From the sequence record MN296515: a stretch of DNA of 50,309 bases; one strand, given 5' to 3'. This DNA comes from Shigella phage Sfin-3. This document shows, piece by piece, positions 22,179-28,477 of this stretch. The notes under the pieces were generated by a model, which saw nothing but the letters and a program-made list of their open reading frames with translations, did not search any database and was not told where the DNA came from. Numbering within the stretch: position 1 is the first letter of the stretch; every line of letters starts with the position of its first letter. Position numbers and translations under genes: made by a program.

Positions 22179-25100
22179 ATGATTCAAAAAGTGATAAGCG
22201 GATCTAAAGGTGGGTCACAGAAGCCTCATAACCCGGTTGAGATGGAGGACAATCTAATCTCAATCAACAAAATCAAGATCCTGTTAGCTGTATCTGATGG
22301 TGAAATTGACGAAACATTCAGCCTAAAGCAGTTGATGTTTAACTCAGTTCCGGTGCAAAACGAGGATGGATCGTTCAACTTCGAAGGGGTGAAGGCAGAG
22401 TTCAGGTCGGGGACGCAGACTCAGGAATATATCAAGGGAATGGAAGATAGCTCTAGTGAGGTAACTGTGAATCGTGAGGTTACTACCGATAATCCATACA
22501 CGATCTCAGTAACCAACAAAACGCTGTCGGCAATCCGTATCAAAATGTTCATGCCTCGCGGCGTACGAATTGAAAATAACGGTGATAAAAATGGCGTAAG
22601 AGTTGAGTATGAGGTGCAACAAGCTGTTGATGGCGGCTCGTTTGAGACGGTGCTCACCGATGTAATCGAAGGCAAAACAATGTCAGGTTACGATCGAAGC
22701 CGTCGCGTAAACCTTCCGAACTTCAACAATCAGGTAATATTCAGAGTTGTTCGAAAGACTCCAGACTCTAACGACTCTAACGTTGTTGATGCGATCCAGG
22801 TAAAGAGTTATGCCGAGGTGATTGATGCCAAATTCCGTTACCCTCTGACAGGTCTTCTTTTCGTCGAGTTCGACTCGAAGATGTTCCCAAACCAGTTACC
22901 TACGATCTCAATTCGTAAGCGCTGGAAGATTGTAAACGTTCCATCAAACTACGATCCGGAATCACGAACCTACAACGGCAATTGGGATGGGACTTTCAAG
23001 AAGGCGTGGACTAACAACCCGGCATGGGTTCTATACGACCTGATGATTAATCAGCGCTACGGGCTGGATCAGAAGGAGCTTGGAATCTCCGTCGATAAAT
23101 GGGCGCTCTATGAGGCGGCGCAATATTGCGACCAGATGGTTCCAGACGGGAAAGGTGGTACGGAGCCTCGCTACCTTTGCGACGTGATAATTCAGTCACA
23201 GACTGATGCGTACAAGGTGATTCGAGATATTTGCTCAATATTCCGTGGTATGAGCTTCTGGAATGGTGAAAGCATCTCGGTAATCATCGACAGACCGCGT
23301 GAGCCTGCGTACATCTTCACTAACGACAACGTTGTTAATGGTGACTTCTCCTATACGTTCGCAAGCGAAAAGAGTATGTACACGACGTGTAACGTGATGT
23401 TTGACGACGAGCAAAACATGTATCAGCAGGACGTTGAGCCAGTATTCGATCGTGAGGCTACTCTACGGTTCGGGAACAACGTAACGAGCATTACAGCGAT
23501 CGGCTGCACACGTCGAAGTGAGGCCAACCGACGCGGGAGATGGATTCTGAAAACTAACCTCCGCAGCACTACGGTAAACTTCGCTACCGGGCTTGAAGGT
23601 ATGATCCCGACAATAGGTGATGTTGTGGCAATAGCCGACAACTTCTGGTCAAGCAACTTGACTATGAACCTATCAGGGCGCTTGCTTGAAGTGTCTGGAA
23701 GCCAGATTTTCTTGCCGTTCCGTGTGGATGCGCGCGCAGGTGACTTTATTATCGTAAATAAGCCCGACGGCAAGCCCGTGAAGCGCACAATCTCAAGTGT
23801 TAGTGCGGATGGTAAGACTATAGAGGTTAACATTGGCTTTGGCTTTCCTGTGAAGCCTAACGCGGTATTCGCTATCGACCGCACCGACATTGCGCTACAA
23901 CAGTACGTCGTGACAAAAATCGATAAGGGCGATGATGACGAGGAATTTACCTACAAAATCACGGCGGTGGAGTACGATCCTAACAAGTACGACGAGATTG
24001 ATTACGGAGTTAACATCGACGACCGACCGACGAGCATCGTTGAACCAGATCAGATCCCTAGACCGGAAAACGTGCAAGTGTCCTCAGAGTCGAGAATCGT
24101 CCAGGGGATGAGCGTAGAAACGATGATTGTTAGCTGGGATAAAGTGCCGTACGCAGTTTTCTATGACGTACAGTGGAGAAAGGATAACGGCAACTGGCAA
24201 AACGTTCCGCAGACAGCAAACAAAGAGGTTTACGTTGAGGGTATTTACGCTGGCAACTATCAGGTTCGCGTTCGCTCCGTAGCTGGTTCCGGTACGACTT
24301 CAGGATGGTCAAATATCGTAGCTGCGACGCTGACGGGCAAACAAGGTGAGCCGGGTCGACCGATTAACCTCACAGCTACGGATGATGTTGTTTTTGGTAT
24401 CCGTACAAAATGGGGGTTCTCTGATGGTTCTGGAGATACGGCCTATACAGAGTTGCAACAGTCACCGGATGGAACGGTTGACAATGCGAGTTTACTCTCT
24501 CTGATCCCGTATCCGCAGCATGAGTATTATCATTCACCGATGCCGGGCGGGAATATTGTGTGGTATCGGGTAAGGACGGTTGATAGGATCGGTAACGTGT
24601 CTCAGTGGACTGATTTTGTCAGAGGTATGGCATCAACAAACGTTGACGATATCATCGGAGAGATTTCTGTCGATATAGAAAACTCGCCGGGCTACAAGTG
24701 GCTTGTTGATAACGCAACAGACAACGCGGCGCAGAACGCAGCTAACGCAGAGGCAGCAATAGAAAACGCGCTCGCCAATGACAAAGACGCGATCTACATG
24801 AAGAAGGAGAACGGAAAACGAAAAGCTGAGTACACGAAATCACTGAAACTTATTGCTGATGAGACGCAGGCACGAGTGACGGCGATCGAGCAATTGAAGG
24901 CAAGTTTTGGAGATCAGATTAGCGCAAGCAACAGCGAATTGCGTGAGGTTATCGCAACCGAGACTGAAGCACTATCGCGTGAGATTGATCAGCTTAAGGC
25001 TCAGATTGGTGACGATATTCAGGCAAGTTTGACTGATATCAGAGAGGCTATAGCAAACGAGGCTGAGGCGAGAACGCAAGCTGACTTGTCATTAAGCGCG

Positions 25101-25598
25101 AGGCTTGGGGATAATGAGGCGGCACTTTCTCAAAAACTTGATTCGTGGAGTAATGCGGATTCGACTGGTGCAATGTACGGCGTCAAGCTGGGTCTGAAGT
25201 ATAACGGCCAAGAATACAGTGCTGGTATGGCTATGTCTCTTATTGGTTCAGGTGCTGCGGTTAAGGCGCAAATTCTATTCGAGGCGTCACGATTTGCAAT
25301 CATGACAGGGATGAACGGTCAGACTCAGTATCCTTTCGTTGTTGAAGGTAATCAGGTGATTCTTAATAGCGCCATCATTAAGAACGGATTCATCACGAAT
25401 GCGATGATTGGAAACTTCATTCAGTCGAATAACTATGTCTTTAACCAGTCCGGATGGAGGCTTGACAAGGGTGGAACATTCGAAAACTACGGAAGTGACG
25501 GTGAGGGTGCAATGAAGCAAACTAATACCACAATATCTGTTAGGGATGCGAGTGGTCGCCTGAGGGTTCAGATTGGCAGGTTGACTGGTTCATGGTAA
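22179..25598 (+). CDS. tail tip / host specificity protein (lambda gpJ-like)
   Basis: 1139 aa; fibronectin-III-like repeats; C-terminal coiled coil and receptor-binding region; classic position. Confidence 0.85.
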   Translation: MIQKVISGSKGGSQKPHNPVEMEDNLISINKIKILLAVSDGEIDETFSLKQLMFNSVPVQNEDGSFNFEGVKAEFRSGTQTQEYIKGMEDSSSEVTVNREVTTDNPYTISVTNKTLSAIRIKMFMPRGVRIENNGDKNGVRVEYEVQQAVDGGSFETVLTDVIEGKTMSGYDRSRRVNLPNFNNQVIFRVVRKTPDSNDSNVVDAIQVKSYAEVIDAKFRYPLTGLLFVEFDSKMFPNQLPTISIRKRWKIVNVPSNYDPESRTYNGNWDGTFKKAWTNNPAWVLYDLMINQRYGLDQKELGISVDKWALYEAAQYCDQMVPDGKGGTEPRYLCDVIIQSQTDAYKVIRDICSIFRGMSFWNGESISVIIDRPREPAYIFTNDNVVNGDFSYTFASEKSMYTTCNVMFDDEQNMYQQDVEPVFDREATLRFGNNVTSITAIGCTRRSEANRRGRWILKTNLRSTTVNFATGLEGMIPTIGDVVAIADNFWSSNLTMNLSGRLLEVSGSQIFLPFRVDARAGDFIIVNKPDGKPVKRTISSVSADGKTIEVNIGFGFPVKPNAVFAIDRTDIALQQYVVTKIDKGDDDEEFTYKITAVEYDPNKYDEIDYGVNIDDRPTSIVEPDQIPRPENVQVSSESRIVQGMSVETMIVSWDKVPYAVFYDVQWRKDNGNWQNVPQTANKEVYVEGIYAGNYQVRVRSVAGSGTTSGWSNIVAATLTGKQGEPGRPINLTATDDVVFGIRTKWGFSDGSGDTAYTELQQSPDGTVDNASLLSLIPYPQHEYYHSPMPGGNIVWYRVRTVDRIGNVSQWTDFVRGMASTNVDDIIGEISVDIENSPGYKWLVDNATDNAAQNAANAEAAIENALANDKDAIYMKKENGKRKAEYTKSLKLIADETQARVTAIEQLKASFGDQISASNSELREVIATETEALSREIDQLKAQIGDDIQASLTDIREAIANEAEARTQADLSLSARLGDNEAALSQKLDSWSNADSTGAMYGVKLGLKYNGQEYSAGMAMSLIGSGAAVKAQILFEASRFAIMTGMNGQTQYPFVVEGNQVILNSAIIKNGFITNAMIGNFIQSNNYVFNQSGWRLDKGGTFENYGSDGEGAMKQTNTTISVRDASGRLRVQIGRLTGSW

Positions 25599-25604
25599 TA
25601 TCAA

Positions 25605-25630
25605 GGGCATCGAGAGATGCCCTTTTCTTT
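25605..25630 (+). terminator. rho-independent terminator
   Basis: 7-bp stem GGGCATC/GATGCCC, loop gaga, then TTTTCTTTT. Confidence 0.65.
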
Positions 25631-25643
25631 TGGAGGATTTATT

Positions 25644-25949
25644 ATGGCGTACGGTATATCAACTTGGGACGCAAATGGCGTTTATAATAACTATGGAATT
25701 AAGCCTGTTACGGTTGTTGGTTGGAACTTTTTGTCAGCAGGACAGAATTCAGCATCGTTCAGCTATCAAGTTCCTCCTGGTATGCATGTGAACTACGTTA
25801 TAAGCCTTGACGATGGCGCCATTAGTGGGCCTGGCAGGAAAATTATTGCTAGCGGTAATACGATAACAGTAACGCCAACAAACTCACCTGGGCCAAACGT
25901 GTACCCATCATCAAACTGCTACTTAATAGCATATCTGGAGAATGATTAA
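25644..25949 (+). CDS. hypothetical protein downstream of J, paralog of next gene
   Basis: ATG 25644 with GGAGGA RBS after terminator; N-terminus MAYGISTWDANG similar to MSYGAFIDVNGN of next gene. Confidence 0.45.
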   Translation: MAYGISTWDANGVYNNYGIKPVTVVGWNFLSAGQNSASFSYQVPPGMHVNYVISLDDGAISGPGRKIIASGNTITVTPTNSPGPNVYPSSNCYLIAYLEND

Positions 25950-26638
25950 TGTCATACGGTGCTTTTATAGATGTAAACGGAAACCCATTCATAACCCCGT
26001 TATCCACGCCATTCGCCTTATATGCGAGAGGGGAAATTCAATCAGTAAATGTTAGTGGTTCACAGGTTGCGGAGAGATATGTTCGGATACCTACAGGTGT
26101 TCCGGTTATAGCTTTTTGCAAAACAACAAACACGCAGCAGGGGACCGCGCTTTCAGCCTTTACTTTCAGAGACGGACCCAATGTTGGAACTGTTTACATA
26201 AGGGGGACAAATCCAGCAAACCAATCATACACGCTAACATACTACATATTTGCCATATTTGAGCAGTCACTACCGAGCTGGGGTATGGCAATATGGGATT
26301 CGTCAGGAAAGCTAGTGCTGACAAATGAGACAAAAGTCCTTAGTGATTTGGTTACAATTGGCACACCTGGATACGCTGGCGGTGGATTAAACATAGACAC
26401 AACACTCAGCGGAAGCTACGCAGTTGTCCCAACCATACTTGGCAACTATCAAATTGTTATCGGCACACTTCCAACTGGGCAACCCATAATAGGAAACTCA
26501 ACAGCAGGAAGTTCATGCAGGTACAACGGGAGCGCGACGAGAATAAATGCAGCAGCAACCACTGCGACGGGTCAGATAATGAACACCACTAACAATGGAA
26601 ATATCATAACAGCAATCAACACGTCAGCATACGACTAA
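25949..26638 (+). CDS. hypothetical protein downstream of J (Gly/Thr/Asn-rich)
   Basis: 229 aa; start overlaps upstream stop; followed by terminator. Confidence 0.5.
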   Translation: MSYGAFIDVNGNPFITPLSTPFALYARGEIQSVNVSGSQVAERYVRIPTGVPVIAFCKTTNTQQGTALSAFTFRDGPNVGTVYIRGTNPANQSYTLTYYIFAIFEQSLPSWGMAIWDSSGKLVLTNETKVLSDLVTIGTPGYAGGGLNIDTTLSGSYAVVPTILGNYQIVIGTLPTGQPIIGNSTAGSSCRYNGSATRINAAATTATGQIMNTTNNGNIITAINTSAYD

Positions 26639-26661
26639 GCCCCTTCCGGGGCTTTTCTTTT
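26639..26661 (+). terminator. rho-independent terminator at end of late operon
   Basis: GCCCC-ttcc-GGGGC then TTTTCTTTT; overlaps cor stop codon on the other strand. Confidence 0.6.
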
Positions 26662-26887
26662 ACATCGAGCAATCGTGAGACTTGAAGTTATTCTCTGATA
26701 CGTAATGGAATGAGAATGGATACCCAGCACGTAACAGCATCTCCTCTCCGCGCATCTTAGAGCCAAAAACGTAAACCGAGTACTCCGCGCCGCCTGATTC
26801 ATAAACTGCCGTACAAGTGCGCTCAGGCATTGATGAACAACCAGTCAGGATGAATGCCGCAGCAATAATGGTGATTAACTTTTTCAT
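26660..26887 (-). CDS. cor: Cor-like outer-membrane lipoprotein (FhuA-blocking superinfection exclusion)
   Basis: 75 aa; signal peptide plus lipobox LTGC; size, lipoprotein nature and position after tail genes match Cor of T1/phi80-type phages; own sigma70-like promoter. Confidence 0.65.
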   Translation of the reverse strand: MKKLITIIAAAFILTGCSSMPERTCTAVYESGGAEYSVYVFGSKMRGEEMLLRAGYPFSFHYVSENNFKSHDCSM

Positions 26888-26945: not shown

Positions 26946-27353
26946 TAGAGCGATTACAATTTTTCGTGTAACAAGTGTCTATTTTTGTAACCGGAGCGGG
27001 TGTTACAAAATCCACCCCATACGACCGCAGAAGGATATGATAAAAACTCTATATAATATATATAGATAGATAATATTTAATTTTAGCTTTATATATATAA
27101 TTATTGTTGTGTAACAGTTGTCTATCGTGTAACTGGTGATTTGATTGATTCGTCAAATTTCTATCATATATGTTCAAAATTTAATCAATATGGATTCTAC
27201 TTGTAGCTATCTCTGTATTTCTAAGAAAAAGCGGTTACAAGTATTACACAGTAGACATCACATAAAAATAGACTTAAGTCATTGATTCCGTTAATGCTGG
27301 TTGTAACTTGAGCGATATAGACACGCTATTACACACCAATTACATGTATCCGA

Positions 27354-27381
27354 TTGACTAAACGCTGTTAATGGCTATAAT
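27354..27381 (+). promoter_or_regulatory. sigma70-like promoter for exonuclease/Erf/SSB operon (TTGACT-16-TATAAT)
   Basis: -35 27354-27359, -10 27376-27381; 32 nt upstream of ATG 27413. Confidence 0.55.
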
Positions 27382-27412
27382 GGATTCATCGTAAACGAGG
27401 GAGATAAACGAA

Positions 27413-28477
27413 ATGTTCCAGGTATTCACATCAAGTCAGCTTTCTAATGACGAGTATCATAGCAACGAAGGTTGGGCGGCAGAGTATGTAAGCGGTTCTA
27501 GCCTTGCAGAAATTTATCAGACTTGCCCGGCTAACTGGCGATTCAAGAAGAACGAGACTACTAAAGCGCTGGAGTTCGGCACTCAGTCGCACACTAACTT
27601 TGAGAGTCGAGATCTGTTTACTGCAACGTATGCGCGTTGTCCTGCTCCGTCAGAGTTTAAGGATCTGATTACTTCGCAGGCAGCACTGGCAGCAAAATTA
27701 AAATCTTTTGGCCTGAAAGGTACATCCGGTAAGCAGTACCCTGACCTCATCAAAATGATGGTTGATTGCGGTGAAGATCTCAATGTTCAATATCTTATTG
27801 AACTGATTGCTGAAGCTGAGGCGCGCGCTGAAGGAAAGCAACTGGTTGACGCTGATAAATATGATGCCTGTATGAAGATGAGGGCCATTCTTGAGCAAAA
27901 TCCCGATCATGAAGCGTGCATCAATAGCGAAACTGCGCAGCGTGAGATCTCAATTTTCGGTGAGATATCCGGCGTCAAGGTTAAGGTTCGACTTGACCAT
28001 TTGGACTACAAAGAGAATGTTCCAGGTCGTGTGCTGACTGGTTATGATGAGAATGGCGATCCGGTATTTGAAGACGTGATTTTTCCTGAAGCTCTGATTA
28101 TCACTGACTTCAAAACCACGATGAGCGCCAACCCGTTAGAGTTCCCGAGACTGGCATACAATCACGGGTATTATCTTAAAATGGCCTTACAGCATGACCT
28201 ATTGCGGCGTGCAATTCAGGCTGGAGCATTTGAAGGAAACTTCCCGGAAGATATTCCGATCGTAGTTCGATTGCTGGCACAGGAGAAAAAGGAACCTTAC
28301 ATTGCCCTTGCTTACCGCATGACTATGGAGCAAATCAGAATAGGTCGCAATCAGTATATTAGCGTGGTCCACACTTATAAGGCTTGCTCTGAGATGGACG
28401 TTTGGCCAGGATATGCTGGCGACGCAAGCGAGATCGAACTTGAAACGCCGTCATGGGTACGATATCAAAACAAGTAA
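27413..28477 (+). CDS. PD-(D/E)XK exonuclease (RecE/Cas4-like recombination nuclease)
   Basis: 354 aa; VRLDHL ... IITDFKTT (D...D/E-x-K core); first gene of exo/annealase/SSB operon. Confidence 0.55.
   Translation: MFQVFTSSQLSNDEYHSNEGWAAEYVSGSSLAEIYQTCPANWRFKKNETTKALEFGTQSHTNFESRDLFTATYARCPAPSEFKDLITSQAALAAKLKSFGLKGTSGKQYPDLIKMMVDCGEDLNVQYLIELIAEAEARAEGKQLVDADKYDACMKMRAILEQNPDHEACINSETAQREISIFGEISGVKVKVRLDHLDYKENVPGRVLTGYDENGDPVFEDVIFPEALIITDFKTTMSANPLEFPRLAYNHGYYLKMALQHDLLRRAIQAGAFEGNFPEDIPIVVRLLAQEKKEPYIALAYRMTMEQIRIGRNQYISVVHTYKACSEMDVWPGYAGDASEIELETPSWVRYQNK

Follow-up and report, generated by a model that had tools for sequence, protein, structure and literature searches.

Phages T1 and phi80 have been used for decades in studies of the tonA/FhuA receptor, and a literature search found no experimental identification of the FhuA binder on the phage side. 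This gap comes into focus at a single locus of Shigella phage Sfin-3 (sequence record MN296515; "the window" is the whole 50,309-nt stretch analyzed here), in which two small genes, here called ORF1 and ORF2, lie between the J-like central tail fiber gene and cor: what do these two proteins contribute to receptor recognition? The locus has already been described, under the term "bona fide RBP locus" (PMC8594841; PMC12309495; bioRxiv 10.64898/2026.04.02.716166), and its alleles track the terminal receptor across Drexlerviridae and relatives (PMC8594841; bioRxiv 10.64898/2026.04.02.716166). The Sfin-3 copy is an ordinary one, with the pair corresponding to the FhuA-type allele. What is new is limited to a short leader motif with three occurrences across ORF1 and ORF2; published work on the RBP locus includes neither this three-fold motif nor the repeats inside the larger protein.

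Organization and conservation of the locus

The J-like gene (22179-25598, + strand; 1139 aa; Pfam domains FNIII-A_GpJ, Phage-tail_3, and Phage_Tail_Tip) is followed by a terminator-like hairpin and T-run of the intrinsic type (25603-25624, within a feature mapped to 25603-25633, +), at a site where the T1 record also annotates a terminator. ORF1 (25644-25949, +; 101 aa) starts at the ATG at 25644, 7 nt after a Shine-Dalgarno GGAGG (25632-25636, +), and its TAA overlaps by one base with the ATG of ORF2 (25949-26638, +; 229 aa). A hairpin (26637-26654, unstranded), also annotated in T1, serves as a common terminator for ORF2 and the convergent gene at 26660-26887 (− strand). Profile matches identify the latter as cor, which encodes a superinfection-exclusion lipoprotein reported to inactivate FhuA: its product matches NF047972 lamb_exclu_cor (E = 4.3e-16; score of 58.7 bits, above the cutoff of 31) and phrog_1119 (E = 1.1e-30), and includes an LTGC lipobox (MKKLITIIAAAFILTGC). 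An earlier note, made from the sequence alone, had placed two ORFs of 101 and 229 aa downstream of the J terminator and next to cor, and had called ORF2 Gly/Thr/Asn-rich; the coordinates, hairpin, and neighboring gene all hold, and the description of ORF2 is a fair one (T 13.1%, G 10.9%, N 7.9%). Because of the terminator between J and ORF1, expression of the pair in T1-like phages would need read-through or an unrecognized promoter; a promoter scan around the locus returned 8 sites vs. 6.4 expected, i.e., no better than chance.

ORF1 and ORF2 are real genes: about 340 phage records encode conserved versions of the proteins. ORF1 is 99% identical in amino acids to T1 ST32 (YP_003913) and ORF2 96% identical to T1 ST31 (YP_003914), within a locus sharing 96-97% nucleotide identity with T1-like phages. 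Both proteins match PHROG profiles over their full length (ORF1 to phrog_557, E = 1.1e-31, aa 1-100 of 100; ORF2 to phrog_425, E = 1.3e-67, aa 1-229), while Pfam and NCBIfam hold no family for either. The T1 record likens ST32/ST31 to N15 gp22/gp23 and the HK022 homologues, and direct orthologues of the pair include T1 ST32/ST31, N15 gp22/gp23, phi80 gp22/gp23, and ES18 gp30/gp31. In these T1-type relatives the gene order, stop/start overlap, and leader motifs are as in Sfin-3, with nothing substantial different; the Sfin-3 J protein is 33 aa shorter than that of T1 because 99 bp of the shaft region are tandemly duplicated in T1. Further homologues are found in JLBYU60, Teewinot, and other Dhillonvirus phages.

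The order J–ORF1–ORF2–cor recurs in T1, phi80, and ES18. In phi80 and ES18, ORF1 starts 0-2 nt from the J stop or overlaps it, suggesting that the three genes form one coupled late operon. Across 80 IMG/VR loci with a related pair, ORF1 is the gene immediately before ORF2 in 79, the ORF1 stop and ORF2 start overlap or abut in 78, and a J C-terminus homologue precedes the pair in 76. A cor homologue is found in 77 of these loci, on the same strand as the pair in 65 and on the opposite strand in 12. Klebsiella Webervirus phages carry the pair without cor, and the link to FhuA may thus not be universal. The sequences of the two proteins also change in step with each other (r = 0.89), and this coupling is closer than that of either protein to J. 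According to a passage of PMC13164509 citing Wietzorrek 2006, T1, HK022, N15, ES18, and phi80 are all FhuA users and have the cassette in common. Taken together, the adjacency and coupling of the two genes, their co-divergence, and the single receptor point towards two proteins that work together.

A tail fiber without a receptor-binding domain

The Phage_Tail_Tip domain of the Sfin-3 J protein spans aa 982-1118 (domain plus C-terminal tail, aa 982-1139, at 25122-25598, +; PF09327, E = 5.3e-48), and just 21 residues lie beyond it. In lambda J, the same domain (aa 845-972) is followed by the receptor-binding domain (RBD) Ig_GpJ_C (PF12421; aa 1001-1132). Judged by its Pfam domain content, the Sfin-3 J protein is without the RBD that lambda J carries at this position. 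The last ~60 residues of J (…GTFENYGS…LRVQIGRLTG) are kept in the J proteins of T1, phi80, and ES18, and the C-terminal region as a whole (aa 982-1139) presumably forms the docking site for the downstream proteins. Since J has no RBD of its own, we propose that receptor recognition is provided in trans by ORF1 and ORF2. The pair and the lambda RBD would then have equivalent positions after Phage_Tail_Tip and an equivalent presumed role towards the terminal receptor, with one difference: the lambda RBD is a covalent part of J, present in three copies per trimer, whereas here the function would sit on separate genes.

This correspondence does not extend to detectable homology. Neither ORF1 nor ORF2 matched the lambda J RBD in Pfam at E ≤ 1, hhalign comparisons with lambda J aa 971-1132 were likewise negative (ORF1 family, E = 0.21; ORF2 family, E = 0.38), and lambda J chains were missing from the top 50 Foldseek matches in the PDB for either model. 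A published resemblance of ORF1 to the lambda J RBD is hence unsupported by Pfam, hhalign (E = 0.21), or the Foldseek top 50.

Our preferred reading, to which we assign a probability of about 0.7, is that ORF1 and ORF2 are distal tail-tip receptor-recognition proteins of the T1 gp32/gp31 type, forming an FhuA-directed device that is probably a detachable end of the tail. The earlier note had proposed a receptor-binding or host-range role from gene position, and this part of its interpretation is borne out by the RBD-less J, by the linkage of the pair to J and cor in FhuA phages, and by the literature. It had also considered the genes to be accessory cargo, which does not fit: with such a J, the pair is probably an essential terminal-receptor device.

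Predicted folds of ORF1 and ORF2

AlphaFold2 (AF2) predicted ORF1 as a single β-sandwich (aa 23-100; pLDDT 82), with the lowest pLDDT in the N-terminal leader. The ORF2 model (pLDDT 83, pTM 0.79) is composed of two packed β-sandwiches (aa 22-103 and 134-224), with low confidence in both the N-terminal leader (pLDDT 37-49) and an internal copy of the leader (47-62); in summary, leader pLDDT is <60 in both monomer models. When compared to the PDB with Foldseek, neither model had a match at E ≤ 0.001, the best being generic Ig-like or fiber-knob domains, and the two family profiles yielded 0 matches against all PDB chains (E ≤ 10 for ORF2). Weak structural neighbors of ORF1 included phage proteins of about 100 aa, among them a homologue from Pseudomonas phage 98PfluR60PP, as well as C-terminal knobs of trimeric fibers and spikes (H-type lectin, gp53-like, Sf6 tailspike C-terminus). 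A Foldseek search of ORF1 against BFVD likewise returned weak matches to small phage proteins and no ORF2-family protein. Within the ORF2 family, the body of the N-terminal domain is the most variable part of the protein (mean identity 0.63, minimum 0.31), which makes it a candidate contact surface.

These predictions bear on whether the pair is structural at all. Small genes located right after a fiber gene often encode chaperones, and ORF1, at just 101 aa, would be of suitable size; ORF1 and/or ORF2 could accordingly be non-structural chaperones of the J C-terminus, absent from the virion, with J itself binding FhuA. FhuA-predictive k-mers are also found in the C-terminal tip of J (bioRxiv 10.64898/2026.04.02.716166), and our literature search found no proteomic or structural study that places either protein in T1-type virions. 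Among individual reports, a cryo-EM structure of T1 does not show J beyond residue 820 or the distal tip, and gp31/gp32 are unlisted (PMC11945409); the mEpimmI proteomics paper does not mention ORF1/ORF2-type proteins; and in the phage of the Sfin-1 LC-MS/MS study the genes downstream of J are 957 and 231 bp long with other names, apparently a different allele. Wet-lab work offers a single hint of virion location, namely a band of 21 kDa on SDS-PAGE of a distant Pseudomonas phage (PMC12309495). We nevertheless consider a pure chaperone role quite unlikely, since J ends 21 residues past Phage_Tail_Tip with nothing at the position of the lambda RBD, the two proteins are predicted as stable β-sandwiches with fiber-knob-like neighbors rather than typical chaperone folds, and the ORF2 N-domain is hypervariable, as a contact surface would be. 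In addition, receptor classes in the literature are set by the allele type at the pair locus, not by J.

A leader motif repeated three times across the pair

The two proteins share a short motif, with the consensus [YW]G-x-x-[IT]-W-D-x-x-G, found at the N-terminus of ORF1 (aa 1-21, MAYGISTWDANGVYNNYGIKP; 25644-25706, +), at the N-terminus of ORF2 (aa 1-21, MSYGAFIDVNGNPFITPLSTP; 25949-26011, +), and again from residue 110 of ORF2 in the interdomain linker (aa 109-134, PSWGMAIWDSSGKLVLTNETKVLSDL; 26273-26350, +). Each copy is thus located ahead of a β-sandwich. The earlier note had remarked on similar N-terminal segments in the two ORFs, and profile comparison confirms a shared motif, but convincingly so only through the third copy, which that reading had missed. 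The direct profile match between the two N-termini is marginal and the weakest of the three (z = 1.9, P = 0.044), whereas ORF2 residues 110-123 (SWGMAIWDSSGKLV) match the ORF1 N-terminus with an hhalign probability of 87-90% and E of about 2e-6 (column-shuffle z = 10, 0/500 shuffles). The internal copy also lines up, in register, with the N-terminal copy of ORF2 (z = 5.4, P = 0.002), and it was the best non-self match when a PSSM of the ORF1 motif was run against a six-frame translation of the whole window.

Outside of the leader, similarity fades. Pairwise comparison of ORF1 and ORF2 was not significant (BLASTP E = 2.8; Smith-Waterman shuffle P = 0.13), nor was profile-profile similarity between the β-sandwich bodies (P = 0.2-0.4), and the best hhalign match of ORF1 to the N-terminal half of ORF2 reached E = 0.0017 with a probability of 15%. 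Long repeat proteins (PPC, fn3, Big_5) matched the β-sandwich body only and were judged generic. The predicted strand order of ORF1 (23-30, 37-40, 47-53, 64-70, 73-79, 91-100) is in register with that of the ORF2 N-domain (22-35, 38-46, 53-60, 67-72, 81-88, 95-103), as a comparison of strand positions rather than superposed coordinates. At the level of sequence profiles, homology therefore covers the leader motif and not the domains, and to call the genes a paralogous pair, as first suggested, overstates the case.

A search of 1.84 billion representative proteins with the ORF1 profile, in which J–ORF1 fusions were also sought, retrieved no ORF2-like protein. One fragment (P0167) carries a J C-terminus in frame with an ORF1 N-terminus; its end degenerates, and the fragment may be an artifact of assembly.

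The leaders are the most conserved segments of both families. The ORF1 family has 13 invariant columns, nine of them within aa 1-24, where column entropy is also lowest, and the motif is kept in relatives down to 22-28% identity. In ORF2, the N-terminal leader is conserved across the family, and no stretch is better conserved than the internal copy, even where overall identity falls to 31%. All three copies are retained at about 30% identity in Klebsiella phage Alina. Mean pairwise identities were 0.86, 0.80, and 0.87 for the three leaders vs. 0.74, 0.63, and 0.71 for the corresponding bodies. High conservation together with low pLDDT typically marks segments whose folding depends on a binding partner, so that the duplicated N-terminal attachment module originally suggested is plausible: the leaders are both the best-conserved parts of the proteins and the parts with lowest AF2 confidence in monomers.

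The same note went on to suggest two alternative distal domains sharing one attachment region. In its most explicit form, an ORF1 trimer and an ORF2 monomer would compete through the leader for one site on the J tip, so that particles would differ in their tips or the phage would have two receptor specificities. The shared motif is real, AlphaFold2-Multimer docks either an ORF1-like trimer or an ORF2-like monomer on the J C-terminus (PMC12309495), and one Tempevirinae lineage encodes an ORF2-like gene and cor without ORF1 (PMC13164509). Yet the pair occurs together in 78-79 of the 80 loci, the stop of one gene overlapping the start of the next, co-diverges (r = 0.89) more tightly than with J, and is associated with FhuA in all phages that have both the pair and a reported receptor. 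The motif itself also fits poorly, with two copies on ORF2 being at odds with simple competition for one site and the ORF1–ORF2 N-terminal similarity being the weakest of the three comparisons (P = 0.044). We thus regard interchangeable heads as improbable, and the suggestion of alternative distal domains as unsupported.

Subcellular localization

[quoted passage not shown] Neither ORF1 nor ORF2 includes a signal peptide, transmembrane helix, lipobox, basic n-region, or hydrophobic stretch, and the maximum Kyte-Doolittle values over 19 residues were 0.50 for ORF1 and 1.12 for ORF2, vs. 1.56 plus a lipobox for Cor, which served as a positive control. The AF2 models, too, are β-sandwiches of soluble type. 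From these sequence features, the two are not predicted to be membrane proteins, and the names lack a sequence basis. A role in superinfection exclusion, exerted from the membrane together with Cor, as read in the KanT1 paper and implied by RefSeq and PHROG names and by the constant association with cor and FhuA use (PMC13164509; 77/80 loci), is scarcely credible given the missing export features (all of which are as expected in Cor), the translational coupling that phi80 and ES18 show between the pair and J, a late structural gene, the variable orientation of cor (same strand as the pair in 65 loci, opposite in 12), and the occurrence of the pair without cor in Klebsiella phage Alina.

A proposed two-protein receptor-recognition device

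Returning to distal tail-tip recognition by ORF1 and ORF2, the following model would account for the features of the locus. ORF2, with its two β-sandwiches, would be the protein that probably binds FhuA, a transporter of the outer membrane. This assignment draws on the co-occurrence of the pair with FhuA phages and on published AlphaFold models (PMC12309495; bioRxiv 10.64898/2026.04.02.716166); in AlphaFold-Multimer runs, a "hand-like" homologue is docked on FhuA as well as on the three J chains (PMC12309495). ORF1, with a single β-sandwich, may act as a co-assembled cap or adaptor, and we infer that both proteins are carried on the virion. The leader, about 12-25 residues long, probably has no fixed structure as long as the monomer is free, and would fold on the tip of the J trimer, on the partner protein, or on both, fixing the device to the fiber. 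After infection, Cor would inactivate FhuA from the periplasmic side, such that the same device on other phages could not dock.

The number of modules suggests one further arrangement, which we consider unlikely. One module from ORF1 and two from ORF2 could assemble into an asymmetric, pseudo-trimeric knob, with one leader per J chain. If true, this stoichiometry would resolve the mismatch between a trimeric fiber and the monomeric, asymmetric FhuA, and would explain the constant adjacency, translational coupling, and co-evolution of the pair.

Comparison with other receptor systems and significance

In outline, the proposed device resembles the FhuA system of phage T5, in which a separate and probably monomeric receptor-binding protein, pb5, is associated with the trimeric central fiber of pb4, and in which Llp, like Cor, is a small periplasmic lipoprotein that inactivates FhuA after infection. 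T5 relies on the single protein pb5, encoded at a different genomic position, whereas a pair is found here. pb5 is also about three times larger. No relationship between pb5 and ORF2 was detected: the profile search of all PDB chains, pb5 included, gave 0 matches at E ≤ 10, and the Foldseek top 50 did not include pb5, with none at E ≤ 0.001.

A closer parallel in gene order is provided by Oekolampad and Rtp, in which the gene for an LptD-type receptor-binding protein lies downstream of J and is accompanied by a cognate exclusion lipoprotein, Rtp45, i.e., the same locus and logic. The LptD-type protein differs in having another receptor and a cryo-EM structure (bioRxiv 10.1101/2025.07.07.663478), whereas the family described here has none in the PDB. 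The tail-proximal part of the LptD-type protein is reportedly also poorly ordered off the phage. The FhuA and LptD locus families have been described as unrelated (bioRxiv 10.64898/2026.04.02.716166).

[quoted passage not shown] The J tip, ORF1, ORF2, and cor would together represent a compact, swappable cassette for retargeting small siphophages, and the triple leader motif points at specific residues for testing how a receptor-binding protein is attached to a trimeric fiber.

Organization and conservation of the locus

Across the roughly one kilobase surrounding the two ORFs between the J-like central tail fibre gene and cor (1,061 bases), the genome, a T1-like phage of the genus Tunavirus, is 96-97% identical to T1, JMPW1, and about 25 further records. 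ORF1 (25644..25949, 101 aa; GGAGG ahead of its start) comes after the J-like gene (22179..25598) and a terminator made up of a hairpin and T-run (25603-25624). The ATG of ORF2 (25949..26638, 229 aa) shares one base with the ORF1 TAA, and beyond ORF2 lie another hairpin (26637-26654) and cor, which is convergent (26660..26887). Both ORFs lie exactly where the earlier note had placed them, and ORF2 is enriched in Thr, Gly, and Asn as described there. An alternative in-frame ATG at 25617, giving a 110-aa product (additional segment 25617-25643), was rejected: it falls within the terminator hairpin, has no Shine-Dalgarno sequence, and all homologues begin MA(E)YG, so that 25644 is the real ORF1 start. 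Upstream of both cor (minus strand) and a recE-like exonuclease gene (27413..28477) lies a very AT-rich intergenic stretch (27030-27400) with a 21-bp tandem repeat (27153-27192) and a near-consensus sigma-70-like site on the plus strand (27354-27381; TTGACT-16-TATAAT, 11/12 matches); this stretch probably provides divergent early promoters for cor and for the recombination genes.

ORF1 matches PHROG 557 (E=1e-31) and ORF2 PHROG 425 (E=1e-67). Their T1 orthologues are ST32 (99% aa identity) and ST31 (96%), noted in the T1 record as similar to N15 gp22/gp23 and two HK022 proteins; the copy in the window is near-identical to the T1 genes. The order J–small gene–large gene–cor is common to phi80 and Salmonella phage ES18, in which the ORF1 start overlaps the J stop codon or lies at most 2 bases from it. 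Both genes occur in about 340 phage records, spanning T1-like phages, Dhillonvirus, HK/mEp lambdoids, and Klebsiella Webervirus. Of 80 IMG/VR loci that the ORF2 profile retrieved, 79 had an ORF1 homologue immediately ahead of ORF2, the ORF1 stop and ORF2 start overlapped or abutted in 78, a J C-terminus preceded the pair in 76, and cor was close by in 77 (same strand in 65, opposite strand in 12).

Several relatives depart from this layout. Klebsiella phage vB_KpnS_Alina (Webervirus; sequence L085, 2151-3124) carries the pair without cor, followed directly by an opposite-strand tail-fibre gene, so the pair is not obligatorily tied to Cor. In Escherichia phage ADB-2 (L007, 2697-2855), the ORF1 homologue is shortened to a 66-aa open segment, and for the matched region the RefSeq record lists nothing besides Cor and a "membrane associated protein". 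The shortening is due to a frameshift or sequencing error, or else ADB-2 is a naturally ORF1-defective T1-like phage, in which case it would be informative on whether ORF1 can be dispensed with. In a 139-aa metagenomic protein fragment (P0167), the C-terminus of a phi80-like J (…VQVGRLTGCSD) runs in frame into the N-terminus of an ORF1 (MAYGIQTWDASG…), and the sequence degenerates at the end; the fragment may be a genuine J–ORF1 fusion, or it may have arisen through an assembly error or a frameshift. Homologues of both ORFs also appear in eight "Campylobacter phage" records (host Campylobacter jejuni), unexpected for an enterobacterial FhuA-type module; these records may be mislabelled or contaminant T1-like genomes.

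A probable receptor-recognition device in place of the J receptor-binding domain

Lambda J contains a Pfam Phage_Tail_Tip domain (845-972) followed by the receptor-binding domain Ig_GpJ_C (1001-1132), whereas the J protein of the window ends at residue 1139, soon after Phage_Tail_Tip (982-1118) and with no Ig_GpJ_C. The receptor-binding part is therefore missing, with ORF1 and ORF2 encoded in its place; J of phi80 and ES18 has the same type of end. In the coiled-coil shaft, T1 J (1172 aa) carries a 99-bp (33-aa) tandem repeat (L001, 5247-5467; 2.2 copies, 97% matches), unlike the 1139-aa J of the window, in which 24879-25100 holds no tandem array, so that two closely related phages differ in central fibre length by a single repeat unit.

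AlphaFold2 was confident for the cores of both proteins, predicting a β-sandwich in ORF1 (residues 23-100, pLDDT 82) and two packed β-sandwiches in ORF2 (22-103 and 134-224, pLDDT 83, pTM 0.79). No PDB chain was related to either by sequence or by fold. ORF1 had weak structural neighbours of two kinds: small phage proteins, among them the homologue from Pseudomonas phage 98PfluR60PP, and C-terminal knob domains from trimeric fibres and spikes. These predicted folds would fit a fibre tip.

Published work concurs on the function. The BASEL study paired alleles of the locus with terminal receptors, describing them as bona fide RBP loci (PMC8594841); an FhuA-specific family with accessory proteins was confirmed in a 2026 preprint (10.64898/2026.04.02.716166), and a 2025 modelling paper docked the same "Ig-like 11 kDa + hand-like 21 kDa" pair on the J tip and FhuA (PMC12309495). 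The T1 cryo-EM structure ends at J residue 820 (PMC11945409), and a literature search for virion proteomics of the two proteins returned none. Given a J without a receptor-binding domain, the lack of export signals described below, the predicted folds, and this literature, ORF1 and ORF2 most likely form a receptor-recognition device, a role that the earlier note had proposed and that was already in the literature; the accessory cargo envisaged in the note was not supported.

That note also suggested that the two proteins might carry alternative distal domains. Their near-universal adjacency with stop/start overlap, their co-divergence (r=0.89, vs 0.61-0.66 with the J C-terminus), and the single receptor, outer-membrane FhuA, reported for pair-carrying phages of known receptor argue instead that they act together. 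More speculatively, and with low probability, one ORF1 and one ORF2 could supply three modules for the three J chains as an asymmetric pseudo-trimer. An envelope role for both proteins as helpers of Cor, as proposed in PMC13164509, is unlikely, since signal peptide, lipobox, and hydrophobic helix are absent from the ORF1 and ORF2 sequences, which are apparently not exported, whereas Cor has them.

A leader motif used three times

The suggested paralogy of the two genes held only for a short motif. Direct comparison was negative (BLASTP E=2.8; Smith-Waterman score within shuffled expectation), as were comparisons between the β-sandwich bodies (P=0.2-0.4), and family alignments identified the conserved parts as short leaders, [YW]G-x-x-[IT]-W-D-x-x-G, rather than domains. 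Leaders open ORF1 (residues 2-15, AYGISTWDANGVYN) and ORF2 (residues 2-15, SYGAFIDVNGNPFI), and a third copy lies in mid-ORF2 (residues 110-123, SWGMAIWDSSGKLV). The ORF1 and internal ORF2 leaders matched most strongly (hhalign Prob 87-90%, E about 2e-6, against E=0.2-0.3 for reversed-sequence controls; column-shuffle z=10, 0/500 shuffles), and the internal copy was the best non-self match of the ORF1 motif PSSM in a six-frame translation of the whole window. The two ORF2 leaders aligned in register (z=5.4, P=0.002), while the N-terminal pair seen originally scored lower (z=1.9, P=0.044). All three are retained by relatives with only about 30% identity, Alina among them, and the ORF1 leader by ORF1 relatives at 22-28%. 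For the domains, hhalign aligned ORF1 with the ORF2 N-half over 60 columns in register (E=0.0017, Prob 15%), with predicted strand orders also in register; the ORF1 profile retrieved only standalone relatives of about 100 aa, and no ORF2-like protein, from 1.84 billion representative proteins. Taken together, the evidence from leader statistics, family alignments, and body comparisons for a "leader + β-sandwich" unit used three times is good as regards the leader and only suggestive for the domains.

Conservation is highest in the leaders (mean pairwise identity 0.86, 0.80, and 0.87 vs 0.74, 0.63, and 0.71 for the bodies), which also have the lowest column entropy and are the only parts left unplaced by AlphaFold2 in the monomers (pLDDT 37-62); segments that fold against a binding partner typically combine these features. 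From this we infer that the leaders probably fasten ORF1 and ORF2 to one another, to the conserved tip of J (…LRVQIGRLTG), or to both. The most variable part, the ORF2 N-domain body (minimum 31% identity), behaves as would be expected of a receptor-contact surface. Our small addition, three motif copies coinciding with conserved low-confidence segments, concerns a locus that the earlier note had on the whole described correctly: the known receptor-recognition cassette of the T1/N15/phi80 type, which is associated with FhuA use.
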